From positions 22,878-86,877 of the forward strand of contig CANQMP010000002.1 in NCBI GenBank assembly GCA_947624975.1: a stretch of 64,000 bases of DNA. The letters run 5' to 3'. Every line of letters starts with the position of its first letter. The stretch's first letter is position 1. Below, piece after piece: positions 1,055 to 48,478 of the stretch. Below the pieces are notes generated by a model. That model searched no databases and had not been told where the DNA came from. It was given only the letters and a program-made list of their open reading frames with translations. The stretch comes from Candidatus Gastranaerophilales bacterium (lineage in GTDB: Bacteria > Cyanobacteriota > Vampirovibrionia > Gastranaerophilales > Gastranaerophilaceae). The position numbers and the translations under genes were made by a program.

Positions 1055-1847
1055 ATGAAGAAGATTACTATTAGCGCACTTAACCCATCGGGGGGGGGGG
1101 GGATTTCCTCATAGCATAGGTTTTAAGAGTATTCTAGCCTCAAAAACCAAGAATTACGCGTTTACCCTTGCCGAAGTGTTGATAACTTTAGCCATAATCG
1201 GTGTTGTTGCAGCGTTGACCATGCCTGTGCTTATAAATAAATATCAGGAAAGAGTCACGATAACTAAAGTTAAAAAGATGTATTCAGTGCTAAATCAAGC
1301 GGTGAAACTGGCAGAAGTAGATAACGGGCCGGTAAATACGTGGAATTTGCCCAAATACTTCAGTGGCGGGAGTCAAGAGCTGTACAGTTATTTAAAACCG
1401 TATTTAAGAGTTGCAAAAGAATGTGTTGAAGATAACTCGGGTAATTGTCTTGATACAAATACAGATTATTACTATTTAAACGGCATGGAATGGGGTAGCC
1501 CAAATTCCGAGTCTGGTTATGGTAATAAATATTATGTAAGACTTATTCTTTCTGATGGAAGTTTAATTTGGTTTAGATCTGCCGGCACAGAAGGTTGTAC
1601 AGATACAGATAGCGGTTATACTGATGTGTGCGGACTGCTCTGGTATGATGTAAACGGTAGTGCAAAACCAAACACGATGGCAAAAGATATTTTTGCTTAT
1701 TTCCTTCGTCCGTCGGGAGTTTATCCATACGCTGCTCAAAACTGTTATTTGAACAGAAGAGGTTGGGGATGTTCAAAATGGATACTTGAGCATGATAACA
1801 TGAATTATCCCGAAACTGCGCCGTCAGAGTCGAGCGAAAATCAGTAA
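1055..1847 (+). CDS. Type IV prepilin-like / type II secretion protein, leader frameshifted at a G13 tract (ORF track starts at 1176)
   Basis: AFTLAEVLITLAIIGVVAALTMP N-methylation motif and DVNG..PN..KDIF motif. No in-frame start between the in-frame TGA at 1056-1058 and the cleavage site; SD-preceded ATG 1055 joins the frame only with G12 or G15. Confidence 0.8.
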
Positions 1848-1857
1848 AATAAATTAT

Positions 1858-2047
1858 TGATGGGTGGAATGACAATTGTTCCACCCATCCTACTTTCTTA
1901 AATATTCCGTACAGGCTCAGCCTGCCACTTTTTAAAAATTCGTTGGGGTAAAACCCCAACTTACATTTTAACCCCTCACCCTAGCCCTCTCCCGCACGAA
2001 GGTCAATTCGATGGGGAGAGGGAACTAGCCCACCCCAGCCATCTCTT
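1858..2047. repeat. REP-like palindrome mosaic downstream of pilin 1
   Basis: gatgggtggaa..ttccacccatcctac (1859-1893), gttggggtaaaaccccaacttac (1942-1964), cccctcaccctagccctctccc..ggggagaggg (1972-2022). Confidence 0.85.
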
Positions 2048-2122
2048 TTAAATTTAGGAAAAGCAGAAAACAAGCTTTTCAAAACTCGTGTATTCCAAGA
2101 TTAATTATGATATAATCTTTTT

Positions 2123-2707
2123 ATGAAACTTTGTATTTTTTCAGGAACTTTTAACCCTATTCATAAAGCTCATTTGCAGGCGGGGCAGTATGTAATTGAT
2201 AATTTCGGGTTTGATAAAATTCTTTTTATTCCCGCTTACAAGCCGCCGCACAAGGATTATGATTTATCAATGTGTAATCATAGGCTTAGGATGGTTGAAC
2301 TTGCTCTGAAAGGTAATAAAAATTTTGCCGTTTCCGATATAGAATACCAAAATGAGGGAAAGTCGTATTCTTATCTTACGGTGCTTGAACTTTACAAAAA
2401 ATATTCACCTGAAGGAAAAATCAGTTTCATCATCGGCACGGATGCTTTTGAAAAAATTGAAAGCTGGTATGAAGCCGAGGAATTAAAAAAAATGGTCGAT
2501 TTTATCGTTTTTGTCAGGAGCGATAAACCCGTAAATCTTGACCGCTTAAAACAAAGGGGATACAATTTTTGTGTGGCGGAAATGAAATTTAATGACATTT
2601 CATCAACAAATCTCAGAAAACTCGTCGCAAACGGCGAAAACATAAGTAAATACGTTACAAAAGAAGTAGAGGAATATATTTTAGAAAATGGATTATACAA
2701 AAATTAA
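2123..2707 (+). CDS. nadD: Nicotinate-nucleotide adenylyltransferase
   Basis: GTFNPIHKAH (HxGH-like), PPHK, SYSYLTV, IIGTD, ISST motifs. Confidence 0.92.
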   Translation: MKLCIFSGTFNPIHKAHLQAGQYVIDNFGFDKILFIPAYKPPHKDYDLSMCNHRLRMVELALKGNKNFAVSDIEYQNEGKSYSYLTVLELYKKYSPEGKISFIIGTDAFEKIESWYEAEELKKMVDFIVFVRSDKPVNLDRLKQRGYNFCVAEMKFNDISSTNLRKLVANGENISKYVTKEVEEYILENGLYKN

Positions 2708-3263
2708 AGAACGATTAAAGAAGGATTTGACGGAAGAAAGGTATTATCACACTTTAGGCACAGCCGAATGTGCAAAAGAACTTGCGGAAAAATACGGACT
2801 TGATTCGGAAAAAGCGTATCTTGCCGGGCTGCTTCACGATTGCGCTAAGTGTTTTCCTACCGAGAAACTTTTGGAAATTATTAACAAAAATCTTGATATT
2901 GACGAAAGCGAAATGCTTAATTACAAAACTTTACACGCACCTGTGAGTGCTTATATCGCACAAAAAGATTTCGGAATAAACGATGAAGATATTTTATCGG
3001 CGGTCAGATGTCATACGCTCGGAAAACTTGATATGAGCGATTTTGAAAAGATAGTTTTTCTCGCCGATAAAATTGAATTAAACACCCGTGACAAGGATTA
3101 CTGTAAGGAGCTGAGAGAAATTCTCAAGGGCAAAAACGGCTTAAACAAGGCTCTTTTAAGGTGTTACAAAGACACAATTAAAAGTCTGGTCAAAAGAGAT
3201 TTAAAAATTTGTTTGAAAACAATTAAAATTTACAATAAACTTCAAGATTTGGTACAAAATTAG
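2688..3263 (+). CDS. yqeK: HD-domain Ap4A hydrolase YqeK
   Basis: RYYHTLG, AGLLHDCAK, LHAPVSA, HTLG, LADKIE; adjacent to nadD. Confidence 0.88.
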   Translation: MDYTKIKERLKKDLTEERYYHTLGTAECAKELAEKYGLDSEKAYLAGLLHDCAKCFPTEKLLEIINKNLDIDESEMLNYKTLHAPVSAYIAQKDFGINDEDILSAVRCHTLGKLDMSDFEKIVFLADKIELNTRDKDYCKELREILKGKNGLNKALLRCYKDTIKSLVKRDLKICLKTIKIYNKLQDLVQN

Positions 3264-3302
3264 CATGTTCATGTTACAATAAATTTGAAGTGAGGGAAAT
3301 TT

Positions 3303-5576
3303 ATGAACGTAGTTGAGATTAAGAATAATTTGGTAAAAATATCGTACGAACCGTCCGATATGCTTGCGTTATCAGGGTTTGTAATTATCGAGGATGAGAA
3401 TACGCCCTATGTTGCACAGGTTATGAACCTTAGAGGCGATGAAAACGGTAATTTTGCCATTGTTAAACTTTTGTTTACGTTTAACTCCGAAGGTATTCTG
3501 AAAAGCTATAACGGTACCGTTCCTTCTTATAACTCGGTTGTTTCTCCGCTTCCCGTAAAAGATTTGCTGGATGTTATTCCGGTTGAAAAACCTGTTATTA
3601 TCGGAAAACTAGCTCAACTGAATACGACTTTGAGAGTCGATAAAAGTATTTTTGAAAATAATTTGTTAATATGTTCGTCTAATTTCGACAACACTTCACT
3701 TTTGATAGATAATTTTATCAAACAGCTCGACGAAAAAATCGTTATAATTGATACCGAAGGAGTTTTCAAATCGGATAGCAAAATTACGTTCCCGAACGAT
3801 TTCAAACTTCCGCTGAATTACGACACAATTAATTATATATACGAAAACGACCTTGAGGATACGGATTCTGTCAGCAAGGCAATAATTCAGGATATTTTCC
3901 TTGAAGTTCAGGAGTACACAAAAACGCTCTCCGAAGGTTATTTGCCGTTTAATTCGTTCTTCAACGTTGTAGATTCGCAGTTTAAAGAAACTCAAATCCC
4001 GCAGTTAGTGCTGTTGAAAAATAAACTTTTGAAATATAAAGAAGAAGAAATTTTTGCAGACGATGATATATCAGCACTTTCAAGGCTTGCTCAGGTTAAT
4101 GACCCTCTTATAATTGATATTTCAGGTGTTCAAGACAGCCTTCAAAAGGAAGTTATCTCTTATATTTACGGTGTTTTGAACAGCTTGAACGTAAAAATGT
4201 ATTCTTTCGTAAAAATTTCAAACGACAATTCCGATAAGAAGCTTTTGCGTCTGCTCACATCGGAGTCAAATATTTATACGACAATTATTTGCCCTCACGA
4301 GTACAAATATGTTAATGAATTAAAAGAAATTTCGCAGAATAAGATTTTGTTCACTCCGCAGACCTTGCAGCATGATTTCTTGAGTTATAACACGTTTTTG
4401 AACAAACTTAACGGTACGGAATTTGTAATATTCGGTGCTCACACTCAGGATATACCGTTAATTATTCAGCTTAGCGAATTTTCACAAACGAATTACGATG
4501 ATGAGCCTGAAAATTCGCAAGAAACGGAAGAAACAAAAAAATCGCAGGAAAATGTTCTCGCTCAGGTTGTAATGCAGGATTTGTTGCCTGAAACGACCGA
4601 AAAATCAGATGAAAACATTGAAGATGAAGTCCCTGAAATTATACCGACAGAGGATATCGCGGAAGAACCTGCCGTTGAGGAGGTTTTGACGGAAAATACT
4701 TTGGAAGAAATTTCAGAAGAACCTGTAGAAATTTCTGATGAACCCGTGTTTGAAAATGTGCTTGATGAACAAGTAATTGACGAACAGACGGTTTATGATG
4801 AACCGATTATCGAACAAATGTCTGATGAACAGCCTATTGAGGAAAGTTCTGATGAGCCTGTTTTTGAAGTATTATCCGATGAACCCGAAGCGAATGAAAC
4901 GGTACAAGAATTTACGGAAGAATTTTCAGCTGATGAGCCTGAAAATGTTCCCGAAATTACCGCTGATGAGCCGATTATTGAAAATATTTCGGATGATAAA
5001 ACGGATGAAAACATTTCCGAATTAGTAACTGAAAATGCTGACGATGTAAATATTTCCGATACATCAGAAAATGTCGATGATGTGAAAGAATTGACGGCAG
5101 AACTTGAAGAAAACGTTATTTTGACCGATGAAGTAAGTGATGATGAACCTGTTATTGCAGAGCAAACCCCCTCGCTTAGCGGTGATGAGCTTGTCGAACA
5201 GGTCGCGAAAGATGTTGATAAAATTTTCTATGAAAAATTGCCCGAAGAACCTGAAATCGTTGATGATGAGCTGAATGAAGATGATTTGAATTTGATAGAG
5301 GATTTGACGGACGCTCAACAGGACTCGGTTAAAGAATTTACCGAAGATGATATTGTTGAAGAAAATCCCGTTCCCGTCTACCCAGCAGATGATATTGAAG
5401 CGGTTGATACACCATCATTTGAACCCGGTGACAGAGTTTCGACTCCCAAATACGGCGAAGGTGTTGTGGAAAAAATGATTAAGTACGGCAATAAAATGCT
5501 CTGCTCGATAGATTTTCCGAATATCGGAAGAAGGCTTCTTGACCCAGCAATGACGGAAATCACAAAATTATCTTAA
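3303..5576 (+). CDS. Hypothetical protein: degenerate HerA/DUF87-like N-domain, long acidic linker, PcrA/UvrD-type C-terminal Tudor-like domain
   Basis: LLICSSNFDNT at Walker A position, IVIIDTEG, E/D/P-rich linker, FEPGDRVSTPKYGEGVV...IDFPNIGRRLL. Confidence 0.6.
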   Translation: MNVVEIKNNLVKISYEPSDMLALSGFVIIEDENTPYVAQVMNLRGDENGNFAIVKLLFTFNSEGILKSYNGTVPSYNSVVSPLPVKDLLDVIPVEKPVIIGKLAQLNTTLRVDKSIFENNLLICSSNFDNTSLLIDNFIKQLDEKIVIIDTEGVFKSDSKITFPNDFKLPLNYDTINYIYENDLEDTDSVSKAIIQDIFLEVQEYTKTLSEGYLPFNSFFNVVDSQFKETQIPQLVLLKNKLLKYKEEEIFADDDISALSRLAQVNDPLIIDISGVQDSLQKEVISYIYGVLNSLNVKMYSFVKISNDNSDKKLLRLLTSESNIYTTIICPHEYKYVNELKEISQNKILFTPQTLQHDFLSYNTFLNKLNGTEFVIFGAHTQDIPLIIQLSEFSQTNYDDEPENSQETEETKKSQENVLAQVVMQDLLPETTEKSDENIEDEVPEIIPTEDIAEEPAVEEVLTENTLEEISEEPVEISDEPVFENVLDEQVIDEQTVYDEPIIEQMSDEQPIEESSDEPVFEVLSDEPEANETVQEFTEEFSADEPENVPEITADEPIIENISDDKTDENISELVTENADDVNISDTSENVDDVKELTAELEENVILTDEVSDDEPVIAEQTPSLSGDELVEQVAKDVDKIFYEKLPEEPEIVDDELNEDDLNLIEDLTDAQQDSVKEFTEDDIVEENPVPVYPADDIEAVDTPSFEPGDRVSTPKYGEGVVEKMIKYGNKMLCSIDFPNIGRRLLDPAMTEITKLS

Positions 5577-5915
5577 ATTTTTTGCACCTTTAAGATACAC
5601 AAATTGCGGGATAAAATCTTCGTTACAGTTGAGAACTATCAGGATGCGAATACACAAATTCAGTGAATTCGGCACGTCAAGTTCGTGAAAACACATCATG
5701 GCAGTGTCTTTCAAGCCAAAGTCTTTTCTTGCGAATTTTGCGGGAAAATCCGCATTCAAATCATTTGTCGTTGTAAAAATTATGTGTGAAATCTTTTCGG
5801 GAGCAATATTATTTTTATCAAATAATTCTCTCAAAAGCTCAAGAGTCCCGTCTTTTATGGCAGAAGGGGTGTTTTCTTCAACTGTTATTGCTCCGCGAAT
5901 TCCTTTTGTAAACAT
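5568..5915 (-). CDS. aroH: Chorismate mutase AroH class
   Basis: KGIRGAIT, IIFTTTNDL.ADFPA, MMCFHELDV, CIRILI, YLKGAKNLR. Confidence 0.92.
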   Translation of the reverse strand: MFTKGIRGAITVEENTPSAIKDGTLELLRELFDKNNIAPEKISHIIFTTTNDLNADFPAKFARKDFGLKDTAMMCFHELDVPNSLNLCIRILIVLNCNEDFIPQFVYLKGAKNLR

Positions 5916-5918
5916 ATT

Positions 5919-6824
5919 TCACCTCAAACCGTTAGCCCAGTCACGGGCAAGCATTTCACCTTTTCCTTCGGGTTTTACTTTGATAAGCATTATGCTGTCT
6001 TTTCCGCACCCGACTTCAATGCCTTCTTTGCAAAACCTGAATTCCCCGCAAGGAGCCGTGTTTTTAACAACACGGGTTTCAAGAACTTTGATAATTTTGT
6101 CGTTGTGAACAAAATACGCAGACGGAAATTTGTAAATACCTCGTACCAAATTGTGAATATCGTCGGCTGATTTTGTCCAATTAATCAGTGTTTCCTCTTT
6201 GGTAAGCTTGTTTGCCATGCAAACGCCGTTTTCACACTGTTTTTCGGGCGTTATGGTGTTCTCAACAAGCCCTGTTAAAGTTTTTTCGATTAATTCGGGA
6301 GATTTTTCGCTGATTATTTCATATAATTCCGCACAATTCATATTATCGGGAATGCGAATTTTTTCTCTCAGACAAATGTCCCCGCAGTCAAGCCCGAGTT
6401 CGGTAATCATTGTACAAATTCCCGTTTCGCTGTCACCGTTAATAATAGCACGTTGTATGGGGTTTGCCCCTCTGTATTTTGGCAAAAGCGAGGCGTGAAG
6501 ATTAATTGTTTCGTATTTCGGGATATCAAGAACTTCTTGCGAGAGAATTTGACCGAAAGCAAAAGTCACAAAAAAATCAGGATTTAGTTTTTTTAATTCT
6601 TGTTGAACTTCAATATCTTTCCTGATAGATTTCGGCTGAAACACGGGAAGTCCTTTTTCCAGTGCAAAGCGTTTTATCGGCGAAAAAGTTAACTTTTGAC
6701 CGCGTCCTGCGGGTTTGTCGGGTTGAGTTACAATGGCAAGAACATTTATTTTATCGGAATTATACAAATATTCAAGCGATTTGAGAACAATGGCAGGAGT
6801 TCCGAAAAAGACAATATTTATCAC
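5919..6824 (-). CDS. fmt: Methionyl-tRNA formyltransferase
   Basis: FFGTP, TQPDKPAGRG, NLHASLLPKYRGANPI; GTG start overlaps the def stop. Confidence 0.95.
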   Translation of the reverse strand: MINIVFFGTPAIVLKSLEYLYNSDKINVLAIVTQPDKPAGRGQKLTFSPIKRFALEKGLPVFQPKSIRKDIEVQQELKKLNPDFFVTFAFGQILSQEVLDIPKYETINLHASLLPKYRGANPIQRAIINGDSETGICTMITELGLDCGDICLREKIRIPDNMNCAELYEIISEKSPELIEKTLTGLVENTITPEKQCENGVCMANKLTKEETLINWTKSADDIHNLVRGIYKFPSAYFVHNDKIIKVLETRVVKNTAPCGEFRFCKEGIEVGCGKDSIMLIKVKPEGKGEMLARDWANGLR

Positions 6825-7381
6825 TTGTTTAACTCCTTGTCCAGCTCGGAATCGTCTGCGAGCATTTCGGGATTAATCGGCGGAAGATTATGCTTTGCCA
6901 AAACTTCATCGGTTTCAAACCTGTTAACACAGTGGTCTATAAATAAAATGCCGTCAAGGTGGTCGTTTTCGTGCTGAATTGCCCGTGATAAAAGCTCTCC
7001 GTCTTTTGCTTCCATAACGAACGCCCTTCCGTTTATGTCAAGAGCTTTGACAGTAACGTTTGCATAACGTTTTACGTCCGTATAGGCTTGGGGGAAACTG
7101 ATACATCCTTCCTGTGCTATGACCGCACCCGATTTTTTAATGATTTTCGGGTTAATGAAAACCAAAGGATTAAGCGGTTCATCGTTTTTAGATACATCAA
7201 CCACAAAAACCCTATAATTTACGCCGATTTGCGGAGCTGCCATACCCACGCCGTTTTTTGCATACATAGTGTCAAGCAAATCCTGTACAAGCTCGTGAAT
7301 TTTTCGTGAAACCTTGTGAACTTCTTTGGAAGGCTCTCTTAAACTCTTTTCTCCGTATTGCAATACTCTTTTTACAGCCAT
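6821..7381 (-). CDS. def: Peptide deformylase
   Basis: GVGMAAPQIG, EGCISFP, QHENDHLDG. Confidence 0.96.
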   Translation of the reverse strand: MAVKRVLQYGEKSLREPSKEVHKVSRKIHELVQDLLDTMYAKNGVGMAAPQIGVNYRVFVVDVSKNDEPLNPLVFINPKIIKKSGAVIAQEGCISFPQAYTDVKRYANVTVKALDINGRAFVMEAKDGELLSRAIQHENDHLDGILFIDHCVNRFETDEVLAKHNLPPINPEMLADDSELDKELNK

Positions 7382-7417
7382 TGAAACCTCTTTCTTAAAA
7401 AAAATTATACTATAAGT

Positions 7418-8080
7418 CTATCTGATATTCAAGAACTTGTGCATTTGTGCAATTAAGCGTACATTTTGGTATTCTTCAAGGAATTTATCAAGAATTTTTG
7501 CGGCAAATTCCGTTGATACCGCCATACTCTCATCCGTCATTTCAGGCTGTAAAATAAGTTCTATATTAAACTTTTTGCCGATTTCAGTGCATTTTTTTAT
7601 TTCATCATCAGTAATTTTTTCGTTAAAAACAATTTTTGCAAAAGTTTCAACCCCTTTACACGCTTCAAAGAATTTTTCGTGGAATTTGAATGTGTCTTTA
7701 ATACCTGTGGCACTTTCCAGTTTGATATCAGCTGAAACGACTGAAATAAAAGGTTTAACCTCCAAAAATTTATCCGCAAGAGTTGCATTTGTTTCAAGAT
7801 AAATTTTTTTGTTCACACGGGGAAGAAAATCTTTCAGAAACTCGCTATGTAAAAGCGGTTCACCTCCTGTCAGCGAAATCGAATGAACTTTTTTGAATTT
7901 GTTAACTTCATCGGCAAGAGTGCAGGGGTCATATTCTTTGTAATCTTTATCGGCAGAAAATTCCGTATCGCAGTAATTACATTTAAGGTTGCAGTTGCAA
8001 AACCTTACAAAAAGCTGTTTATAGCCTACGTATGGGCCTTCTCCCTGAACTGAGTCAAATATTTCTTTTATTTTAACCAT
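7418..8080 (-). CDS. queE: Radical SAM 7-carboxy-7-deazaguanine synthase-like protein
   Basis: [19 protein letters not shown] (CxxxCxxC), TGGEPLL, ETN, QMHK. Confidence 0.8.
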
Positions 8081-9069
8081 ATATTTTCTCTTATGTTTTG
8101 TGATGACAATTTTTTAAGCTTTTCATAAAGCTTTATTTCATCATCCGACAAAACAGAAGGAATTTCAATATGTACAATAACTATAAGGTCGCCTGATTTT
8201 CCGTTTTTGTTAACGCCTTGTCCTGCCAGTCTGAATTTTTGTCCTGTATGGGTTTTCGGAGGAATTTTAAGGCTGATGTTTCCGTCAGATACGGGAATTG
8301 AAATATTACAGCCGAGAACGGCTTCATAAGGGGATATCGGGACGTTATAGGTCATGTTTTCAATTTTTGAATTTTTGTCGGGTTCAATTTTAATTTTCAG
8401 GTACAAATCACCGTTTTTTCCGCCGTTTTCGCCTGTGTTTCCCTCTTGCGGAATTCTCAATTTCGTACCGTTTTTTATGTTTTGCGGAATTTTTACGGTA
8501 ATTTTTCTATGCTCGCTTTTTTCGCCTGTTCCGTTACATTTCGGGCATTTTGTACCGTTTATAAATTTTCTTCCCTTGCAGTGCGGGCATTGAGCGGTAT
8601 GCAAAACATTTATTATCCGCTCACATCCCGTAATACAGTCGTTAACCGTCAGAGTTATTTCTTCATAAATATCAGTTCCTCGTTTGGGAACGGGTTTGGA
8701 CTTTTTGCCGAATTCTTCAAACATTTCATTTATTTTTTTTGAAAATTCTTCTTTTGTTTTTTTGTTAATATCTGAATGAGTCTTTTTTTCGGTTGTTTGA
8801 GTTTTTTTGTATTCGGACTGTGCTTTTTTTGCGGAAGTTTTCTGTTCGGTTTTTGTGTTTGACTTAAAAAATCCGTTTATCGTGTCGTATTGAAGTCGTT
8901 TTTTTGCATCGGAAAGCGTTGCGTAAGCTTCAGAAATATCTTTAAACATTTCTGCCCCCTGCGGGTTCACATCGGGATGATATTTCCGTGCAAGTTTACG
9001 GTAGGCAAGCTTTATTTCCGCGTTTGAACTGTCAGGTGTAACTCCGAGAATTGAATAATAGTTCTTCAT
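8068..9069 (-). CDS. DnaJ-family chaperone with reduced zinc-finger region
   Basis: J-domain with HPD, only two CxxC motifs ([14 protein letters not shown]), DnaJ C-terminal domain GDLY..GDL. Confidence 0.85.
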
Positions 9070-9090
9070 ATTTTTATATATAATGAAGGT

Positions 9091-10323: not shown

Positions 10324-10393
10324 AGAAGTATTATAGCAAAAAAAATTATTTATAACATTGATTTAAAAATATCTCATGTGATATAATTTTTTT

Positions 10394-12599: not shown

Positions 12600-12625
12600 A
12601 TTTTGTTTTGTTATAAAATACCGTT

Positions 12626-32900: not shown

Positions 32901-33087
32901 ATCAGCTATAGACAGCCTAGGAACTCAAATCGACAAAGCGAAAGAAACAGTTCAACAGGCTAAACAACAAGCTGTTCAACAAATAACCGATACCATTCAA
33001 GAACATAAACAAAAAGCTCAAGAGGCTAAACAAAAGTTCCAAGATGCAAAAGAAGGCTTGAAAAATTTAAAAAATCTTTTGAACTAA
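29938..33087 (+). CDS. AsmA-family protein
   Basis: N-terminal TM anchor, long beta-repeat body, AsmA-like C-terminal motifs (LSGKL...GNVSF.I.DG; F..I.GD..FDNG). Confidence 0.75.
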   Translation: MWKKFGIGLGIFVIAIYALFLIVPFFLTGIANAYSPKLSQMIEEMSGFKVKLEKISVVTTPKLTVGAKVGHIDAALPTGESFFTADNVQGKLSLLPVLMKKIEIDMVGADNVNLNLKVKKDGKFLIEDYIPKNEEQKNEQQPEKFEMPFNIKLSNKLPNIVIKNYNITFVDMPSDKSYSIYGNKASVKDFVLNKKVKISADGKFMLQDKVQFNYDVKLFNKVMPDVELNDLVFNPSETDEQPAEPMNINVIDIFKAIYNNQLTADVTANVSTSGTFEDMNFNGFCNISNLGIAVDGKKLPASNADLTLKGNKIDLYSKLYSAENEITEIIGKFKTGKHPKIALNCKSNAKFKSIIDLIDSLAQSFGYNDLATLTATGGIDADFSLKSDMKTVQSSGFLKVPSASLSYGLYNIAINNINADIDFSNNMLNIKNAGLSVLNQPLNIKGTITQKADANISVSAKNLQLKGLLLALGQMSLLKENNISSGALTLNVDVKGRLDKIQPRVNLSIDNVNVKNIPSNTSLTLANAGANVYTDGKIAGGTVNINNAKVINPAVVLTAPKAEMVIGEKDIDIKNAYVLYENTRIDIAGKISDYLAKNIKLNLTANGLGTINLTGTLIDGAKKLDLRLFTTKTISMAIPGMKKSNLKADADISITGACANPYLKGKVNIPTLTMPDMAMAVENLNILLNGYIASGSGTLKKFTSGGIVAENLSSDFNLKNNVFYLNNIAGDAFSGKIGGNVSYNLQNGHIKVNFKGSDMDAEKAIAGAAGIKNALSGKLGFNADVTLHGATDVEMIKNLKGNVSFNIADGTLGNIGRFENFLFADNISSNAILKSAMNSISALPAIKNTAEFKTISGDLTFDNGWARLNPVKTTGPSMAYYITGRYNILNGTANVIVLGRLSAEIIKLLGPLGDLSVDKLTSYIPKFGALTGNLINMMTSDPKSENISAIPALSSGNTNYKDFKVVFNGGVESRSSVKSFKWLSNCDTSAIDSLGTQIDKAKETVQQAKQQAVQQITDTIQEHKQKAQEAKQKFQDAKEGLKNLKNLLN

Positions 33088-34576: not shown

Positions 34577-34597
34577 ATGAAATAATAAATTCTCCAT

Positions 34598-34648: not shown

Positions 34649-34851
34649 TTCCCTATCCCCGTCGAATTGACCTTCGTGCGGGAGAGTGTGAGGGTGAGGG
34701 GTCAACTCCCTCCCTTTTTAAGGGAGGGCAGGGGTGGGTTCAATTCTCAGCATGAAACGTAAAAATCAGTCAGTCGTTGCGAAAATTGTTTCACCCATCC
34801 TACTTTTGGAAAATTGTCCGTCATTGCAAGCGAATGCGAAGCAATCCAGCT
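34649..34851. repeat. REP-like mosaic downstream of pilin 2
   Basis: Reverse complement of the 1971-2024 module, a ccctccct..agggaggg hairpin, ttcacccatcctac, and gtcattgcaagcgaatgcgaagcaatccagc abutting the pilin stop codon. Confidence 0.85.
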
Positions 34852-35602
34852 AATTATACGGGTAATCATCAGAAATTTTCCAGCCGTCGAATTGGATTAG
34901 TCCTCCGCAAAAACTTCCTCGGTTTTCCATACAGCCAAATTGTGGGTTAGATACTAAATCTTCTCTTGTTGATTCGGGTATCCAGCCCAAACCAAACATC
35001 CAGTATCCTGATTTTTTAGCTGATTCGGAACCTGCTTTTCTTTGTTCGCCAAAAAAGATTGATGATAGAAATAAGTCATATCCAAGACGGTTTTGTCCTT
35101 TATGCGGACCGTCAATATCTATAACTATATGCATGTGAGGCGAATATAGATCACTACTCCCAAGTCCGCCGGGCTGCAAAATAAGCCCGTATCCTGATGC
35201 GGTTAAGATATAATAAAACGGAGTAAAATTGGTGCTAATTTCCCCAACTCTGGGATCAATAACTCCGGAAAAATTACATTTGCTAAATTCATCTTTAGAA
35301 CAAACTTTTTGTACTTTAAAATATTTTAAAAAATAGTTATCAAGAAAATATTTTGTATTATCTTCCGAATTGTCATAAGGAAATGACCAACTGTCAAGCA
35401 TTCCGTTTTCCGCTTCCGAAAGTTTTATAGCCTGCGAAACTTCGGCATAAGCTTTTTTGAGCCTGTTCACCGTGACGGTTTTCCGATATTTCCCGATAAG
35501 CGTCGGCATGGTCATTGCGGCAACTACACCGATTATTGTGAGGGTGATTAAGACCTCAGCTAATGTAAAGGCTGTTTTAGATTTAACATTTTTTTTATAC
35601 AT
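34850..35602 (-). CDS. Type IV prepilin-like / type II secretion protein (pilin 2, intact)
   Basis: MYKKNVKSKTAFTLAEVLITLTIIGVVAAMTMP; DIDG...NRLGYDLF; C-terminal Cys pair; SD AAGGAGA. Confidence 0.9.
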   Translation of the reverse strand: MYKKNVKSKTAFTLAEVLITLTIIGVVAAMTMPTLIGKYRKTVTVNRLKKAYAEVSQAIKLSEAENGMLDSWSFPYDNSEDNTKYFLDNYFLKYFKVQKVCSKDEFSKCNFSGVIDPRVGEISTNFTPFYYILTASGYGLILQPGGLGSSDLYSPHMHIVIDIDGPHKGQNRLGYDLFLSSIFFGEQRKAGSESAKKSGYWMFGLGWIPESTREDLVSNPQFGCMENRGSFCGGLIQFDGWKISDDYPYN

Positions 35603-35656: not shown

Positions 35657-35685
35657 ATTATATTTAATATGCATACTTTTGTCAA
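35657..35685 (-). promoter_or_regulatory. Consensus sigma70 promoter of pilin 2
   Basis: TTGACA-17 nt-TATAAT on the minus strand. Confidence 0.8.
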
Positions 35686-36478: not shown

Positions 36479-36507
36479 TTGACATCATATCCAGTTGATA
36501 ATAAAAT
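36479..36507 (+). promoter_or_regulatory. Putative sigma70 promoter of RND operon
   Basis: TTGACA-17 nt-TAAAAT; SD GGGAGAG before ATG 36536. Confidence 0.65.
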
Positions 36508-36535
36508 TGTTGTAAAAACAACATAGGGAGAGCTA

Positions 36536-37741: not shown

Positions 37742-37780
37742 TATTAAATCGTTGATTTAAAACAGGATAAAGGGATAAAA

Positions 37781-40909: not shown

Positions 40910-42316
40910 ATGTTCAGAAAAATATTGATATTATGTTTTATATTTTCAGGTTTAGCTGTATTCGCCGATGATTTCGGGAACACGGTTAACGAAAAAGAGT
41001 ACCCCGATGCGAATTCGGTACTTCCGAAAGCAGAGGACAGGACGGATTTTATTATTGAGGGTTCTGTTGAAAAAAATATTGATATGACACTTGATAAGTG
41101 TATTGAGCTTGCACTGGGTAACAACCCGCAAATTAATGCGGCTTTCCACGATATTTTGGCATCGGATACAAGAATTAAGCAGGTTTGGTCAAATTATTTC
41201 CCGCAAATAAGCTGGCAAACAGGTTATACAAGAATTCGTCAATTACAATTATCTGATGCATTGGGAAGAAACCTTACTTTTAATTACTATATTTTGGGTC
41301 AAGTTACTTTACAGCAAATGCTTTACGACTTTGGAGTTACTCAAAATCAGGCTACGATAAGACGTTTGGATTATGAGGCTTACAAATCGACTTTAGGAGC
41401 AACGATTAACGAGGTAATCTATCAGACAAAAGACGCTTATTACAACCTTTTGTATGCATTTGAAAACAAAAAAGTTGCGGAAGATACAGTTAACAAGTTT
41501 GAAATGTTCTATAATCAGGCAAAAGCATTTTATGAAATCGGTATGAACCCGAAAGTTGACGTAACTATTGCCGAGGTTAACCTGAGTAATGCGAAATTAC
41601 AGCTTATTCAGACGGATAATGCCGTAAATCTTGCGATAGCGAGATTAAATAATGTTATGGGTGTGCCTTTTATTGATAAATACAATGTTCAGGAACGATT
41701 AAAGTATCAACCCGTTGATATAACCTTTAAAGAATCGATAGAAATTGCGAGAGAGGCAAGACCCGAGCTTAAAACAGCCGAATTGAAAGTTGAAAGTGCA
41801 AGACAGACATTAAATCTTGTGAAAAAGTCTTATTTCCCGACACTTTCGGTCGAAGGTCAGGCACAACTCGGCGGTAAAAGCTGGACTTCAAATCACGGTT
41901 ATAACATCGGCGGATATTTGAATTTCCCGACTATTAACGGCATGCTTATTAAAAATGAAATAAAAGAAGCACGTTATCTGTATGACAAAGAAATCGCAAA
42001 TGCAAAAAACACCCAAAATCAAATATATTTGGAAATTCAAAATGCGTTTTTAAAACTTGAGGAAAAGAAAAACCAAATGCCCGTTGCACTTTTAAACGTC
42101 AAGCAGTCAAAAGAAAATTACGAACTTTCATACGGCAGATATCGTGTGGGCGAAGCCAGCCCGACAGAGCTAAAAGACGCACAAATAAACTATCAGCAGG
42201 CGCAGTTGAGTTATTATAATGCGTTATATCAATATAATTCCTCCAAAGCGGAACTTGAAAAAGCCATCGGGAAAAATATCGCCGCGGATACTGATATCAT
42301 TGAACTTGGCGAATAG
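40910..42316 (+). CDS. TolC-family outer membrane efflux protein
   Basis: LTLDK-like..ALGNNP, YFPQIS, RPEL, YRVGEAS..ELKDAQ. Confidence 0.9.
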   Translation: MFRKILILCFIFSGLAVFADDFGNTVNEKEYPDANSVLPKAEDRTDFIIEGSVEKNIDMTLDKCIELALGNNPQINAAFHDILASDTRIKQVWSNYFPQISWQTGYTRIRQLQLSDALGRNLTFNYYILGQVTLQQMLYDFGVTQNQATIRRLDYEAYKSTLGATINEVIYQTKDAYYNLLYAFENKKVAEDTVNKFEMFYNQAKAFYEIGMNPKVDVTIAEVNLSNAKLQLIQTDNAVNLAIARLNNVMGVPFIDKYNVQERLKYQPVDITFKESIEIAREARPELKTAELKVESARQTLNLVKKSYFPTLSVEGQAQLGGKSWTSNHGYNIGGYLNFPTINGMLIKNEIKEARYLYDKEIANAKNTQNQIYLEIQNAFLKLEEKKNQMPVALLNVKQSKENYELSYGRYRVGEASPTELKDAQINYQQAQLSYYNALYQYNSSKAELEKAIGKNIAADTDIIELGE

Positions 42317-42336
42317 ATGATTTCCAAAATAATAGC

Positions 42337-42523
42337 CAGCCCTTTTCTAGGGAGGGTTTAGGAGGGTAAAATGTAAGTTGGGGTGGAAACCCCAACTTAC
42401 GATTTCTTCCCTCTCCCGCAGGGGGAGAGGGAATTTATATTTTTTGCACGAAGTGCCTAAACGAACCTTTCACTTTTCACTTTTTAATTATGGTGTTGGT
42501 GTGGAAACTCCAACTTACGGTTT
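42337..42523. repeat. REP-like mosaic; left copy of a ~120-bp direct repeat (42404-42523)
   Basis: Perfect palindrome GTAAGTTGGGGT-GGAA-ACCCCAACTTAC (42373-42400), then the block repeated at 43997-44115. Confidence 0.9.
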
Positions 42524-42636
42524 AAGTCAACGATTTTGCCTGAATTTTCGTTAGAATGGAAAGTTTTTTTAAATAATTCTTTACAATTAAGCAATTTTTG
42601 ATAAGAATAATACTTTATATAAGTAGTATATAATTC

Positions 42637-43842
42637 ATGGGGAAAATTATGATATCACGTCTAGCCGGTTTAGGTATAGAACTTGTTAAAAAGTCTGTAT
42701 CATCAGGCGTAATCAAAAATGCACAAAGTTTTACAAAAACTGTGAGCGGCACGATGTGCGATTCGATTACGTTGTTGTCGCAAAGAGTAAAAAATTTAAA
42801 TTTATTTTATTCACGGGGAACTCGTAACCACTTATTTAATTTTTCAAAAAAAGGTGAAATTACTGTTCGAACCAGAACTTACGGTTCCGATGATTTAAAA
42901 TTTTTATCACACATTAAAAACGGTCATTACGAAAAACCGATCATATATCCTCACGGAAGTTATCCTTGCACCAAAAACAGTGCGGAATACAGCAATAAAC
43001 TTGCAAAAGAAATTATTAATGAAAATGAACATTTTATTGACGGTTACAGATATTGCGGTCCGAATGCAAAATTTGATGAAACGGGTAAAAACATATCAAG
43101 GTTTAGTAATAGCGGGCAAGAGATTGTAGTAATTGACAGAATGCTTGATAAAACATTGGTAAAAACAATAGAAACTTTCAAAAACCGAATAAATAATAAA
43201 AATTTAACGGATGAGCAAAAAATGGATAAATTAATGAGTTATGTGGATGAAATTTTTTCGGTTGATAAATCAGGCAGTAAAATTGAAGAATTGGTTTCAA
43301 TAATGCATGCCAACAACGGACTGCAAAAAGAAGTTCTTTTAGGCGATATAATAAACAGTGGAGCGGGTGTTTGTCGTCATAGAAGTATTTTGACAAAACT
43401 TCTTGCGGATGAAGTAGGTTTAAAAAGCCGAATGGTACAAGGGTACTTTGGTGGCGGCGGACATGCTTGGAACGAAATAATAACGAAAAATGAAACTTAT
43501 TTATTCGATGCAATGCACGGTAATATTTTCAATGTGACTTCGCCTGCCAAAAATATTGTTCCGCAAACCTTTGATTATAAAATTACCAATCCCTTAAATG
43601 CTGATAAAATTATCCCGAAATATTTTGACGTAAATAGTACAACGGGGGTTATTTACAGAAGTTTACGGCATAAAATTCCGATTAAAACAAGTGAAGCGAT
43701 TGTAATTCCAAGCGGTAACGGTTATTTGGCGGAACCTTTATCTGATAAAGTTATGGTTAACGGTAAAAAAATATTTGAAAAAACGGTTTTAAATGTGGGA
43801 GATTTTGTTAATATAAAAGATATAGGATTTCAAATAATCTAA
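42637..43842 (+). CDS. Hypothetical protein with EDR1/transglutaminase-like Cys-His-Asp domain and possible degenerate FHA tail
   Basis: GVCRHRSILTKLLADEVGLKSRMVQG, GHAWN, YLFDAM; C-terminal VMVNGKKI...LNVGDFVNI. Confidence 0.7.
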   Translation: MGKIMISRLAGLGIELVKKSVSSGVIKNAQSFTKTVSGTMCDSITLLSQRVKNLNLFYSRGTRNHLFNFSKKGEITVRTRTYGSDDLKFLSHIKNGHYEKPIIYPHGSYPCTKNSAEYSNKLAKEIINENEHFIDGYRYCGPNAKFDETGKNISRFSNSGQEIVVIDRMLDKTLVKTIETFKNRINNKNLTDEQKMDKLMSYVDEIFSVDKSGSKIEELVSIMHANNGLQKEVLLGDIINSGAGVCRHRSILTKLLADEVGLKSRMVQGYFGGGGHAWNEIITKNETYLFDAMHGNIFNVTSPAKNIVPQTFDYKITNPLNADKIIPKYFDVNSTTGVIYRSLRHKIPIKTSEAIVIPSGNGYLAEPLSDKVMVNGKKIFEKTVLNVGDFVNIKDIGFQII

Positions 43843-43879
43843 AGCAGACTGAGTCTGCACGCAATATTTAAGTGAAAAA

Positions 43880-44200
43880 TAGCTCTCTCCCTTTACAAGT
43901 GAGGGGGAAAAATTAGTCCCTTCCCTTTTCAAGGTTAGGATGGGTTTTATTAGACCCCTCACCCGAATTTCTAAGTTCCCTACGTTCACTAAGAAATTCT
44001 TCCCTCTCCCGCAGGGGGAGAGGGAATTTATATTTTTTGCACGAAGTGCCTAAACGAACCTTTCACTTTTCACTTTTAATTATGGTGTTGGGGTAGAAAC
44101 CCCAACTTACGGTTTTCGGCACTGCGTGCGAAAATAGCTCCCTCCCTTAAAAAGGGAGGGTAGGGGTGGGTTAATCCCCTCTCCCGCAGGGGAGCGGGAA
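43880..44200. repeat. REP-like mosaic; right copy of the ~120-bp direct repeat (43997-44115)
   Basis: ttcttccctctcccgcagggggagagggaatttatattttttgcacgaagtgcctaaacgaacctttcacttttcac... matching 42404 onward. Confidence 0.9.
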
Positions 44201-44245
44201 AATCCCCATGTTACTACCAAAAGGCTTTCAGGTACTTGCGGAATA

Positions 44246-45061
44246 TCAGTTCTTGCCCAGTTCGTTAGCTTTTTTAGCCGTCTGTGAAATCACATCGTAA
44301 AACAGTTTGTCGGAATTTTCTTCATTCATTACGGAAATTCCAACAAATGTACATCCGCCTTTCGTTGCTACGTTGTCTATAAGAGTTTGCACAGGTGTTT
44401 CACCCCTTTGTAGAACCATTTTTGCCGAACCTATTGCCGTTTGAACCGCTAACTGCAACGATTTTTCATAATCAAGTCCGAGTTTTTCCCCCGCACGTGC
44501 CATATCTTCAATAACTTTATAGAAAAACGCAGGCCCTGAACCCGATATTGCGGTTACAATGTCAATTTGTTCCTCCGTAACCTCAACTGCTTTACCGATG
44601 TTTGAGAGAAGTTCGACAACAAATTTTATATCCTCATCTTTTGCACCCGAACCCTTGCAAACTCCGCTCATCCCCTCCAGAACAAGAGCGGGAGTGTTCG
44701 GCATAACACGAATTACACGGGCTTTGCCGATGATATTTTCTATCTTTGATGTCGAAACCCCTGCAGCTATTGATACTATCAATTTATCCGAGGTTATTAA
44801 ATCCTTTATTTCTTCAAGAACTTCGCAAACATAATTCGGCTTTGTTGCGATAAATATCACGTCATTTTCTTTTACAAGTCTTCTGTTATCAGATATTACA
44901 CGAACGGAAAGCCTTTCTTCGGCAGCTTGGGCAATTTTTGAGCTTATTTCCGAACCCGTTATATTTTCAGCAGGTAAAAAGCCCGATTTTACAATTCCGT
45001 TTATTATTGCGCCTGCCATTTTTCCGCATCCGATGAAACCCGTTTTACAATTTTTGTTCAT
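44246..45061 (-). CDS. proC: Pyrroline-5-carboxylate reductase
   Basis: FIGCGKM, SIAAGV, RVMPNTP, TAISGSGPA, VATKGGCT. Confidence 0.95.
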   Translation of the reverse strand: MNKNCKTGFIGCGKMAGAIINGIVKSGFLPAENITGSEISSKIAQAAEERLSVRVISDNRRLVKENDVIFIATKPNYVCEVLEEIKDLITSDKLIVSIAAGVSTSKIENIIGKARVIRVMPNTPALVLEGMSGVCKGSGAKDEDIKFVVELLSNIGKAVEVTEEQIDIVTAISGSGPAFFYKVIEDMARAGEKLGLDYEKSLQLAVQTAIGSAKMVLQRGETPVQTLIDNVATKGGCTFVGISVMNEENSDKLFYDVISQTAKKANELGKN

Positions 45062-45150
45062 ATTATTTAACCTGCCTTATAAATTATATTGACTTAGAAA
45101 TGTTTTTCGTTTATATTGGTATCATACGACAAACAAAAAGGAATTAAAAT

Positions 45151-45303
45151 ATGCGACGTACACTAGAAGGAACAAAATTAAAAAGACAACACGTAAGCGG
45201 ATTCAGAGCAAGAATGTCTACCCCCGGCGGTCAGGAAGTATTGAACAGACGCCGTGCAAAAGGTCGTCATAAACTCGCTGTTACCGCTAAAAAACGTGCA
45301 TAA
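45151..45303 (+). CDS. rpmH: 50S ribosomal protein L34 (not in the ORF track)
   Basis: Manual translation [50 protein letters not shown]; upstream TTGACT-17-TATATT. Confidence 0.95.
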
Positions 45304-45305
45304 AA

Positions 45306-45665
45306 ATGTTACCGAAACAATTTCGATTAAAAAATAAATCTGCATTTAATGCAACTTACCGTGCGAGAAACACTTTTCATAAAGACGGAGTTACGTTGTT
45401 TGCAGGATTTAGAAAAAAACAGCCCGACACTCCAACCCGTGTCGGTTTTGTTGTGAGTAAAAAAACTCACAAAAGAGCAGTCAGGCGAAACAGACTGAAA
45501 AGGTTAATGCGGGAAGCTTACAGACTTTTTTTGAAATCCGATGACGTCGGAAATTCAAACGAGTTTATGTCCTTAATCTTCGTCGGCAAAGAAAAAGCAC
45601 TTGATAAAAATTTTGCCCAAATCCAAAATATAATTAAAACTCTTTTGGAAGAATTAAAGGTATAA
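45306..45665 (+). CDS. rnpA: Ribonuclease P protein component
   Basis: MLPKQFRLK, RVGFVVSKK, AVRRNRLKRLMREAYR; follows rpmH. Confidence 0.95.
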   Translation: MLPKQFRLKNKSAFNATYRARNTFHKDGVTLFAGFRKKQPDTPTRVGFVVSKKTHKRAVRRNRLKRLMREAYRLFLKSDDVGNSNEFMSLIFVGKEKALDKNFAQIQNIIKTLLEELKV

Positions 45666-45667
45666 CA

Positions 45668-46189
45668 ATGCTTGAAGGAATTTTTGTTGAAAAAGTCTTA
45701 ACACATCCTAATATACGTCCGTATCCTATTGAACCTCAGGAAACATCCGGTTATTTTGTCGGGTCTCAAGGGATTTTCAGATATTCATTGAAAGATTCGG
45801 ATTATCCTGTTGTGATTTTCCCTGAACCCGTTTATGACAGTGAAGGCGGGATAATCAATCAGGGATATTATGAGCTTGCACTGTCGGATTCGCGGGAATT
45901 TTTAATTCTTTTGGAGTCCAAAAATCCGATAGCCGTAATCCCCGTGATAAAAGTTGAGGAAGATGCATCGGAGCCTGAACGTCTGAATAATAAAACGGTT
46001 AAAAAAGAGCAAAAAAAAGAGGCAAAAGCTCGTGAAACCACAAATAAAAAGCGTTCACGCGTCGGAATGAGTCCTGACGAACCTCAAATATATATGGAAG
46101 CCGAACTTGAATATAACCCGAAAGGTCAGTATTATTTAATAAAATACCAACGCGGAACAATTAAAGCATGGGGTGTTTTTAAAGGTTAA
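45668..46189 (+). CDS. Hypothetical protein
   Basis: 173-aa ORF directly after rnpA; no family recognised. Confidence 0.7.
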   Translation: MLEGIFVEKVLTHPNIRPYPIEPQETSGYFVGSQGIFRYSLKDSDYPVVIFPEPVYDSEGGIINQGYYELALSDSREFLILLESKNPIAVIPVIKVEEDASEPERLNNKTVKKEQKKEAKARETTNKKRSRVGMSPDEPQIYMEAELEYNPKGQYYLIKYQRGTIKAWGVFKG

Positions 46190-46201
46190 ACGAAAGTCTT
46201 T

Positions 46202-47335
46202 TTAACCAACAGGCTTTGCGTCAAACATTTTTTCATTGTTAATCAGTACGGAAAAAGCCAATATTGTATAATTTAATTTCAACACCAGCGGATAAATTTC
46301 ACATATCGCTTGCAAAATTGTTATTATCAACAAAACCAATAATGCCTTGTCTTTATGCTCAAGAGCTTTTTTAATCGTCATCCCGAAACCGTACAGCACG
46401 AGCATGAAAAAGAAAATCCCGTAGTCTAAATATATCCGTCCCCATAAATTACCGACAATATCCATGTCGTTTGTTATATTATATCTTTTCCCGAAAAGCG
46501 AAATAGGATTTTTTGCAAGGCTGTAACACAAATTTCTAAACCTGTATGAAATCATTTCATCTGCCAGTATAACAATATTTACTCCTGCTCCGTAAAGCTT
46601 TGCCATAATCAATGATAATATCGGACTTCCTGCAAACGCACCGTATGATACAATTTTTAATTTATTCGGGGATATTTTCTTAAACAAATCTATCAAAATC
46701 ATTAACGCTAAGATAAGTATTGCCGAAGTTCTTGAATTGGTAAATAAAAGCACAAAAACAAAAATAGTAAACAAGAAAGCATAATCAAACTTTTTGAACT
46801 TATCCCATCTTATATAAGTAAATGCCATACATATTTGCAGTAACATCCCCGCAAATACATTCGGATCCGTAAACCCGAGTGAATATCTGTAAAGTTTAAA
46901 TATGCCGAAATCTCTAACAAACACAAAATTATACAGATGATGCGTCAAAGTGAGAAGAATTATTGTCGGTACCATAATTGAACAGACCGTCAAAACCGTT
47001 TTTGAAATGCTTTTAAAACTCACATTCGCCGTGCAAAGCAGTATAAACCACAAATAACTTATGCTGTAATCTTTTACATGATAAGAAACTCCCAATATAA
47101 AAAGTGTTATAATCAAATGTATAATAAACTTTTTGAGATTATACAAGCGATAGACAAATATATTGAAAAACAAACTCAAAACGACAAAAAATTTGAAATA
47201 GAGCTTATGTATCGGAATGAATTTCAACCCCGTAAAATACCATGTCGTTACAAGCATAATGCCAAAAACTACCCATAATATATATACTATGTTGAAAAAT
47301 ACCGCAGGATTAATTTTTTTAAAAGTATCAAACAA
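46202..47335 (-). CDS. Wzy/O-antigen polymerase- or ligase-like polytopic membrane protein
   Basis: About ten hydrophobic segments, RYSLGFTDPN..AG, TNSRTS, SYRF motifs. Confidence 0.6.
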   Translation of the reverse strand: MFDTFKKINPAVFFNIVYILWVVFGIMLVTTWYFTGLKFIPIHKLYFKFFVVLSLFFNIFVYRLYNLKKFIIHLIITLFILGVSYHVKDYSISYLWFILLCTANVSFKSISKTVLTVCSIMVPTIILLTLTHHLYNFVFVRDFGIFKLYRYSLGFTDPNVFAGMLLQICMAFTYIRWDKFKKFDYAFLFTIFVFVLLFTNSRTSAILILALMILIDLFKKISPNKLKIVSYGAFAGSPILSLIMAKLYGAGVNIVILADEMISYRFRNLCYSLAKNPISLFGKRYNITNDMDIVGNLWGRIYLDYGIFFFMLVLYGFGMTIKKALEHKDKALLVLLIITILQAICEIYPLVLKLNYTILAFSVLINNEKMFDAKPVG

Positions 47336-47349
47336 TTTTATTCCTTTTT

Positions 47350-47374
47350 AAAAAAGCCGACATAGTCGGCTTTT
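47350..47374. terminator. Intrinsic terminator after pilin 3
   Basis: AAAAAAGCCGAC-ATA-GTCGGCTTTT. Confidence 0.8.
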
Positions 47375-47375
47375 A

Positions 47376-48295
47376 TTAATCTAAAACACACTCATCAGGC
47401 TTAGAGGTATGATTTGTTTTACAGTATTCTTCTACATCTTTCAGGCTGTTAAAATAACTATAATTACAAGTACCAAATTGGAATTCTAAACGACATCCAT
47501 TATAATAATAAGCATGACCAGCAAGATTGGAGTTAAACATATTTTGAATACGATTACCATATGGCGAAACTACAGTATTTAATTCATTACATTCTTCTTC
47601 ACTACATCCCGATACATCATCCAGTGAGCAGTTTGAACCGTCCAATTCGCCCGATACATCCGCTAACACTCCCGTAGGAGATGCAAGGAACTTGTACAAA
47701 TCTTTTTTAACCCTATTTGGCTTTGTATTGCCGTTAGTATCGACATAAAAGCTTATATTCCGCTCTGCGCTGTCATAGTCAACACCGACCAGTATACCGT
47801 CCGGAGTTTGAAATATATAACCGATATCATTCCAGCTGAAATTTGCCTTATCATCCGCTGCGTATGCAGGCATCGCAAACAAAGACAAGGCAGCTTCGGA
47901 TTTGAAATATTCCTTGGCTAAGTTGTTTTTATTCAACCCGCTTGTGCTGTCTGCAACTATCTTGAACACCTGTGAATGTTCTTTTGCATAGCAAGCCTCA
48001 TCTTCACATGACCATACGGGCAAATTTCTTATGTCAAATACGCTGTAATGTGCCATCATGAGCTTGTAACCGTTTGTGATGACGGCTTTGGCTTTTTGAT
48101 ATCGTGTTTCGTACACCTTGTCTTTGTAGTGATTCATAAGAACAGGTACTGTCATCACCGCAACAACACCAATTACCGCCAGTGTGATAAGCACTTCGGC
48201 TAACGTAAAACCGAAATGATTCTGCTGACTTGACGATTGAGCTTTGTTTTTGAAAATTTTCTTAATTTTTTTCCCTTTCTTTTTTTGTTGTTCAT
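47376..48295 (-). CDS. Type IV prepilin-like protein (pilin 3), leader frameshifted at an A7 tract (ORF track starts at 48194)
   Basis: HFGFTLAEVLITLAVIGVVAVMTVP; DTNG..KPNRV.KDLY. In-frame TAG at 48302-48300 and no in-frame start before the cleavage site; ATG 48295 needs one more A. Confidence 0.75.
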
Positions 48296-48478
48296 CTTTC
48301 TATATCTTCCACAATACTAAATTTTTGCAACACAAAAGCACCTCTGACAAAAACGTCACAGGTGTAACAGGCTGAAACCCTTACGGAGTCTAGATTACAT
48401 TGGGAGGGGGGAGGCACATGCGCTTAGTTATTAAATTTGAATACATTTACCGAACTCCGTTTGAGTAACAATGTGATA

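Follow-up and report, generated by a model that had tools for sequence, protein, structure and literature searches.

A pilin-like gene near the beginning of the window (the whole stretch of 64,000 nucleotides analysed here, which is part of a genome of 1.909 Mb in 59 contigs with a GC content of 36.6%) is very probably one of about 40 slipped-strand ON/OFF switches situated before pilin-like genes. The source organism belongs to the Gastranaerophilales, uncultured gut relatives of cyanobacteria. In this gene (gene 1, 1055-1847 on the forward strand; Table 1), a poly-G tract lies between the only start codon preceded by a Shine-Dalgarno (SD) sequence and the reading frame of the pilin, so that a change in tract length toggles the frame of translation. 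One G gained or lost at replication would set the start codon in or out of the pilin frame, and a prepilin peptidase would then remove the leader, and the tract with it, so that the mature protein would be the same at any tract length. The genes would switch one by one within a repertoire of around 100 pilin-like genes, such that the cells of one population would show different small subsets of this repertoire, and the products would presumably rely for assembly or export on the genome's only type IV pilus machinery. Switching is taken here to be heritable and reversible within a clone, with predicted cleavage between Ala or Gly and the following Phe, and the repertoire may serve adhesion or the variation of antigens or phage receptors.

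In gene 1, 33 nt are situated between the ATG at 1055 and the G13 run. As assembled, the frame of this ATG ends at a TAG codon (1112-1114) ten bases past the tract; a tract of G12 or G15 would fuse it with the pilin frame (ON). The latter reads GGGGFPHSIGFKSILASKTKNYA up to the predicted cleavage site between 1160 and 1161, continues with FTLAEVLITLAIIGVVAA, and runs open from the tract as far as the stop codon at 1847. The other out-of-frame reading meets a stop, as judged by eye, within around 35 nt in the conserved sequence past the tract.

Runs of this kind are far more numerous in the genome than chance predicts. The numbers of G/C homopolymers decrease from 3973 at a length of 4 to 582, 59 and 8 at lengths of 5, 6 and 7, and the decay from these shorter lengths predicts about one run of 8 or more, whereas 87 such runs exist (lengths 8-26), with a second peak at 12-13. 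Collecting the FTLAEV genes and tabulating their reading frames, as the initial annotation of the window had proposed, yielded 97 N-termini of the type (A/G/S)FTLAEV in a six-frame scan of the genome, 37 of them with poly-G upstream. A common cassette is strictly matched at 39 of the 87 tracts, and there are about four more variants. It spans around 200 nt and contains, in this order, an A/T-rich stretch, a run of C5-9, the promoter TTGCAT-16-TATAAT, the SD sequence AAAGGA, ATGAAGAAGATTACTATTAGCGCATTAAACCCATC, the G tract, and ATTTTCTCCTAGCAAGGGTTTTGAGGGTAT. The ATG is followed by 33 nt coding for MKKITISALNPS, by the poly-G tract of 8-19, and by 52-250 nt of further leader (in some copies, 120-250 nt remain up to the N-terminus of the pilin), and the whole is fused to the invariant N-terminus (A/G)FTLAEVLITL, with the predicted cleavage before F, of otherwise very different pilin-like proteins.

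The 5' part of the leader exhibits, among 17 copies, a diversity of 0.115, 0.143 and 0.302 at the first, second and third codon position, respectively; such an excess at third positions is the pattern of a translated and constrained peptide. The part following the tract shows no codon-position bias, yet its pilin frame is open in all of the 22 copies with a short leader.

Concerning the state of the switches, 30 cassette genes with both the ATG and the pilin motif on the contig could be scored, and 6 of these are in frame (ON), 24 out of frame (OFF). Among the OFF genes, 19 have one G in excess and 5 have two. All 24 possess uninterrupted bodies of 206-487 aa, which leaves the tract as the sole lesion.

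Between samples, the state of individual loci differs. The comparison started from three genes that are ON here and whose 90% clusters have a shorter member; in two of the three clusters, the shorter member lacks exactly the 37-residue N-terminal part. The C27 gene contains G12 (ON) in this genome vs. G13 (OFF) in ERZ27248994, and the C35 gene G11 (ON) here vs. G12 (OFF) in ERZ27249265, ERZ27249483 and ERZ27249481. The contigs of the other samples are 99.65-100% identical to this genome over 40.6 kb, with about five gaps: four are the poly-G indels of C27 and C35, and there are also a one-base gap in a short G run (L046) and a 7-nt indel (L026). In these contigs, A/T runs of at least 7 were of unchanged length in 48 of 48 observations. 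For gene 1 itself, an exact look-up of the truncated product in other assemblies gave no match; contigs of other samples that contain its neighbour nadD begin around 146-306 nt upstream of nadD, inside the repeat-rich spacer downstream of gene 1, and therefore miss the tract.

Two side observations were made in this comparison. L026 lacks 7 nt (GGAACTT) of the region at 33021-33080 of the window (C2:55900-55959), the only indel outside G runs in the 40.6 kb. In L046 and L047, from two samples, the same C35 pilin gene is preceded by cassettes with differences at several positions of the promoter, which could be due to cassette conversion between copies or to an assembly chimera at the repeat.

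The products are recognizable as pilin-like. The initial annotation had placed three prepilin-like genes in the window, and all three exceed the cut-offs of both N-terminal models: genes 1, 2 and 3 reach 25.6, 22.9 and 25.9 bits with Pfam N_methyl (cut-off 21.2) and 23.8, 20.9 and 23.9 bits with TIGR02532 (cut-off 16.3). Pfam DUF6613 (cut-off 24.3) is matched by gene 1 with 29.6 and by gene 2 with 43.0 bits, and gene 3 gave no match to it. The D.NG..PN motif, which had been described as common to the three, is part of a motif D.NG..PN..G.D.F that is almost invariant in an alignment of 46 relatives. A sequence profile of the family matches PilA, geopilin and GspG in the PDB, over the N-terminal helix only. 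The AF2 model of gene 2 (pLDDT 74.6) consists of an N-terminal helix of 53 residues (14-66) followed by four to five strands. As for the machinery, the genome encodes a prepilin peptidase (Peptidase_A24, 30.5 bits, above the cut-off), four T2SSE ATPases (one PilB-like of 670 aa and further ones including two of PilT size), T2SSF (PilC) and a secretin, the matches to PilB, PilC and the secretin all lying inside C3:92-96 kb.

Apart from the pilin genes, around 27 poly-G/C tracts are found in other open reading frames; 9 of these frames are in frame, 7 need a shift of -1 and 11 a shift of +1, such that about two thirds are OFF. All ten that were tested encode glycosyltransferases (GT8, GT61, GT6, GT2, GT10 fucosyltransferase, polysialyltransferase-like, GT-D, DUF4422), and surface glycans thus appear to be switched likewise. 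The sites include C4:51.8-78.1 kb, C29:10.4-13.8 kb, C13:39.4-42.5 kb and C18:27403, the last with G26.

The two other pilin-like genes of the window have A tracts in their leaders. The frames are as had been annotated, with the G13 of gene 1 out of frame, the A8 of gene 2 in frame and the A7 of gene 3 out of frame; the attribution of the A tracts to the same switch system as the G tract, however, did not stand. The protein of gene 2 is identical in three other assemblies, and a relative in its 90% cluster reads MYKKKV, with a changed residue and the frame kept; gene 2 is an ordinary unswitched member of the family. In gene 3, the frame of the ATG meets a stop after 31 codons, and the pilin frame (..QQNHFG before FTLAEV) is open but has no start codon; one additional A would join the two. 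The gene 3 leader is base for base the same in two other assemblies, according to an exact-match look-up that is able to return OFF forms only, and since it is the same in three assemblies, the frameshift is considered real and fixed. Orthologues of gene 3 in the genus gave no close match, the relatives reaching only 33-47% and having mixed leader types. Gene 3 is a family member in which a -1 frameshift at an A7 run has become fixed; most likely it is silent or is rescued weakly through slippage.

A/T runs of at least 7 occur 2272 times in the genome (1.19 per kb), 612 times within intact open reading frames, and 11 times in the 2.9 kb of the 61 pilin leaders without poly-G (3.8 per kb), among which gene 3 alone is out of frame at such a run. 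The excess in the leaders is modest and fits their Lys-rich composition. A7 and A8 do not exceed chance; gene 3 is a lone case and does not count as evidence for an A-tract switch system. The wider proposal of the initial annotation, that many pilin variants are selected by slippage in the leader with the mature pilin left untouched, is thus well supported for the poly-G tracts and not for the A tracts. Each of the three genes had also been credited with a sigma70-like promoter of its own; this applies perfectly to gene 2, and for gene 3 there is only a weak match (9 of 12). In gene 1, merely 3 of the 6 bases of the -35 hexamer agree with the consensus, and a consensus promoter scan missed it, yet the hexamer is kept in the copies of the cassette.

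Table 1. Positions of the three pilin-like genes in the window and of the elements associated with them
Feature	Position	Strand	Remarks
C6 run	988-993	+	adjoins the -35 hexamer of the cassette
Cassette promoter TTGCAT-16 nt-TATAAT	994-1021	+	conserved genome-wide (37 copies)
SD sequence AAAGGA and leader start ATG	1041-1057	+	SD 1041-1046, ATG 1055-1057
5' leader part MKKITISALNP(S)	1055-1089	+	kept across cassettes; third-codon-position excess
Poly-G tract G13	1090-1102	+	probable switch; OFF here, one G in excess
3' leader part in pilin frame, FPHSIGFKSILASKTKNYA	1103-1160	+	up to the predicted cleavage site between A and F
Mature pilin-like protein 1	1161-1847	+	FTLAEVLITL helix, then DUF6613 body (Pfam, TIGR02532)
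Terminator-like hairpin 3' of gene 1	1859-1889	+	14-bp stem
Pilin-like gene 2	34850-35602	-	intact; conventional leader of 11 residues, MYKKNVKSKTA before F; no poly-G switch
A8 run in gene 2 leader	35589-35596	-	Lys codons, in frame
Gene 2 consensus promoter TTGACA-17-TATAAT	35657-35685	-	12 of 12 bases match
Pilin-like gene 3	47376-48295	-	leader ATG at 48295 one base out of frame with the pilin open reading frame (G at 48210, FTLAEV from 48209)
Two A7 runs in gene 3 leader	48266-48286	-	48280-48286 and 48266-48272

In gene 3, the phase of the second A7 run is GGA_AAA_AAA, which makes it a perfect slippery heptamer for a -1 shift into the pilin frame, with AAGGGA close upstream; no stimulatory hairpin was found nearby, the closest one beginning around 47 nt downstream (fold z-score -1.55).

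Other explanations of the out-of-frame copies were weighed against a switch at the DNA level. It is improbable that expression is set at the level of the RNA or the ribosome, whether through transcriptional slippage along the G run or through programmed frameshifting, with all copies made at a low level whatever the tract length of the DNA (and with gene 3 rescued by a -1 shift at A_AAA_AAA or by RNA polymerase slippage on A7). Long homopolymers are sites that favour slippage of RNA polymerase, the skew of 19 vs. 5 among the OFF frames could mirror a preferred direction of rescue, and the heptamer of gene 3 conforms to X_XXY_YYZ with the pilin frame at -1. However, G runs are poorer templates for slippage than A/T runs, the tract lengths differ among samples in the DNA itself, and the heptamer is without a hairpin in reach.

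Errors of sequencing or assembly at long homopolymers, with all genes actually in frame, are considered very improbable. Illumina length calls at G11-16 are indeed error-prone, the assemblies of the other samples have a low coverage, 19 of the 24 OFF genes exceed an in-frame length by exactly one G, and 16 cassette tracts are at most 300 nt away from the end of a contig, where the assembler had trouble. Against this, the poly-G tracts of the glycosyltransferase genes show no such bias towards one surplus G, tracts with conserved flanks recur in independent assemblies (SPAdes and Logan) and in almost all species of the genus (58 of 60), three assemblies concur on G12 for the C35 gene, and A/T homopolymers are well behaved, as seen in the intact open reading frames. 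Furthermore, errors would leave unexplained why G runs of at least 8 exist in a genome of this GC content and why they are placed in leaders and glycosyltransferase genes. Poly-G read tails of two-colour Illumina chemistry were rejected as a source of artefacts, the tracts being internal, with both flanks conserved, and recurring in independent assemblies.

Decay of the out-of-frame genes as pseudogenes of an over-expanded family, with no reversible switch, is likewise highly improbable: 80% of the scored cassette genes are OFF, a few members of the family have truncated bodies (28, 84 and 133 aa) and the frameshift of gene 3 is the same in three assemblies, but all OFF cassette bodies are without a second lesion, the lesion always being at the tract, the promoter, the SD sequence and the 5' leader are conserved (the latter with coding constraint), and individual loci that are ON in one sample are found OFF in another.

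Several points nevertheless weigh against slipped-strand switching of the leader as proposed here. The skew among the OFF frames is not predicted by a simple random-walk model and is absent from the glycosyltransferase tracts; common descent of the cassettes, selection against the ON state or a preferred frame of rescue could lie behind it. Both loci with a different state in other samples are selected cases, and at the coverage of around 3x in those assemblies length calls at G11-13 are noisy. The residue at -1 of the predicted cleavage site is Ala in genes 1 and 2 and in most members (Gly in gene 3); since this is not the canonical Gly and since the leaders are unusually long (35-90 aa), processing as a prepilin is assumed. 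Ala at this position is tolerated by some prepilin peptidases. A Foldseek search of the gene 2 AF2 model against the PDB gave no match at E <= 0.001, and no pilin. Finally, MutS, MutS2 and MutL are all encoded; a missing mismatch repair was therefore rejected as the source of tract instability.

The tracts are not restricted to this genome. G10 is present in 58 of the 60 species of the genus, and the pattern G8-N40-70-TTYACNYTNGCNGARGT in 34 of them, with a reversed-pattern control giving none. In a sample of other species, 9 of 11 loci are OFF from the most plausible upstream ATG, an approximate figure, as there are several candidate ATGs per locus. In contrast to the tracts, the leaders are species-specific, with, e.g., around a dozen near-identical leaders in each of the genomes G034 and G040. 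The DNA of the cassette studied here (promoter plus leader) finds matches in this genome only (25 places, 76-83% identity over 135-261 nt), and in 18 congeners the match is limited to the part coding for the pilin N-terminus. Scanning the contigs of other genomes for the pattern of the cassette promoter yielded 16 single-match loci, one of them in a metagenome-assembled genome of Gastranaerophilales, and the leader plus G8 had no match in the JGI metagenomes.

Within the genome, the pilin bodies have a median identity of about 31%. The nearest paralogue of a poly-G gene has poly-G in 18 cases and has none in 17, and the similarity of cassettes is not correlated with that of bodies (r = 0.06); the leader type is thus independent of the relatedness of the bodies, which points to an exchange of the 5' module. 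This module has probably been exchanged through the near-identical segment coding for the N-terminal helix. It is possible, if somewhat doubtful, that the evolving unit is the switch itself, with recombination at the FTLAEVLITL..IGVVAA segment copying the cassette, or homogenising it, between diverged paralogues of the pilin genes, so that each species would have its own cassette on shared ancient bodies.

Some further features of the cassettes and leaders were observed. The C run beside the -35 hexamer varies from C5 to C9 among the copies (nine at C5:17540, eight at C58:83, seven at C27); as it is situated upstream of the hexamer, a change in its length would leave the spacing between -35 and -10 unaltered. 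Palindromes similar to repetitive extragenic palindromic (REP) elements precede cassettes (850-950 and 1890-2000 of the window, and contig ends). In genes with a long leader (C9:917-1120, C11:55915-56118, and C11:9544 on the reverse strand), REP-like palindromes are apparently contained in the leader and read in frame (..NLFKGEGNKYIPFLKKG.., ..PRPLRERARVRG..), and the cleaved leader seems to tolerate such insertions. The family of REP-like and cassette repeats is a major cause of the assembly breaks, and the copy number of the cassette is probably undercounted. Some leaders carry a decoy segment AFTLAEGATHVA.. ahead of the real AFTLAEVLITL. At C16:11918, a pilin-like gene with a non-cassette leader contains a C10 run (Pro codons, on the coding strand) and is OFF by one base, which indicates that the design of the switch is not bound to a single cassette.

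The mechanism corresponds to textbook slipped-strand phase variation; new are the lineage, the scale and the modular cassette. It is most similar to that of pilC1 and pilC2 in Neisseria gonorrhoeae and N. meningitidis, for which a passage in PMC5953494 describes a G tract of 9-20 inside the reading frame and ON/OFF switching by frameshift. In both systems, a type IV pilus gene has a G tract within its reading frame that acts as a frameshift switch; in Neisseria, however, the switch concerns a pilus-associated protein that has a Sec signal and is encoded by one or two genes, whereas here around 40 pilin-like genes with a class III (prepilin) leader share a promoter-leader cassette. The pilC tract was reportedly located by Jonsson et al. 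in 1991 in the part coding for the signal peptide, the mature protein being unchanged. The phase-variable Opa family of Neisseria, with CTTCT/CTCTT pentamer repeats (PMC5953494), resembles the present genes in being a dispersed family of surface proteins with a repeat of its own near each gene start, switched independently and expressed in combinations. The differences are that the Opa repeat is a pentamer, that the family comprises 4-12 genes and that its products are outer-membrane beta-barrels, as opposed to a homopolymer, about 40 genes and pilins. The Opa repeats, too, lie in the region coding for the leader. In a further gut commensal, Bifidobacterium breve UCC2003, loci for sortase-dependent pili contain an intragenic G tract that slips during replication and predominantly has the OFF length (Penno et al. 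2022, PMC9187656). Pilus expression is thus likewise governed by G-tract slippage, but the pili are Gram-positive sortase pili of two loci, and the tract lies in the structural gene instead of a cleaved leader.

Glycosyltransferases are a class of poly-G/C contingency genes in Campylobacter, Helicobacter, Haemophilus and Neisseria. The low-GC genomes of Campylobacter jejuni and Helicobacter pylori exhibit a second peak of G/C runs at about 9 or more, concentrated in glycosyltransferase genes including fucosyltransferases; here, too, tracts are carried by GT8, GT2, GT6, GT10 FucT, GT61 and polysialyltransferase-like genes. The genomes of these two species have around 30 tracts each, compared with 87 here, and neither of them is known to us to have a large pilin family controlled by poly-G. 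To our knowledge, both also lack MutS/MutL mismatch repair, unlike the present genome, in which MutS and MutL are encoded. For Neisseria, glycosyltransferase genes with poly-G/C contingency tracts are described as well (PMC5953494). Searches of the full-text literature for Melainabacteria or Gastranaerophilales together with phase variation, homopolymeric tracts or pilins did not yield any account of pilin poly-G switches.

If the interpretation is correct, around 40 pilin switches and about 27 others in 1.9 Mb would constitute one of the densest sets of homopolymer phase-variable genes known. For practical purposes, gene callers will truncate or miss most of the cassette genes, and the cassettes are points at which assemblies break; metagenomic ON/OFF profiles could serve as a record of surface selection. 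Gastranaerophilales are widespread uncultured gut bacteria with an essentially unknown surface biology, and a repertoire of around 100 pilin-like genes, about 40 of them switchable singly, together with switched glycosyltransferases, suggests strong fluctuating selection on the cell surface, which could stem from host immunity, from phages or from attachment sites.

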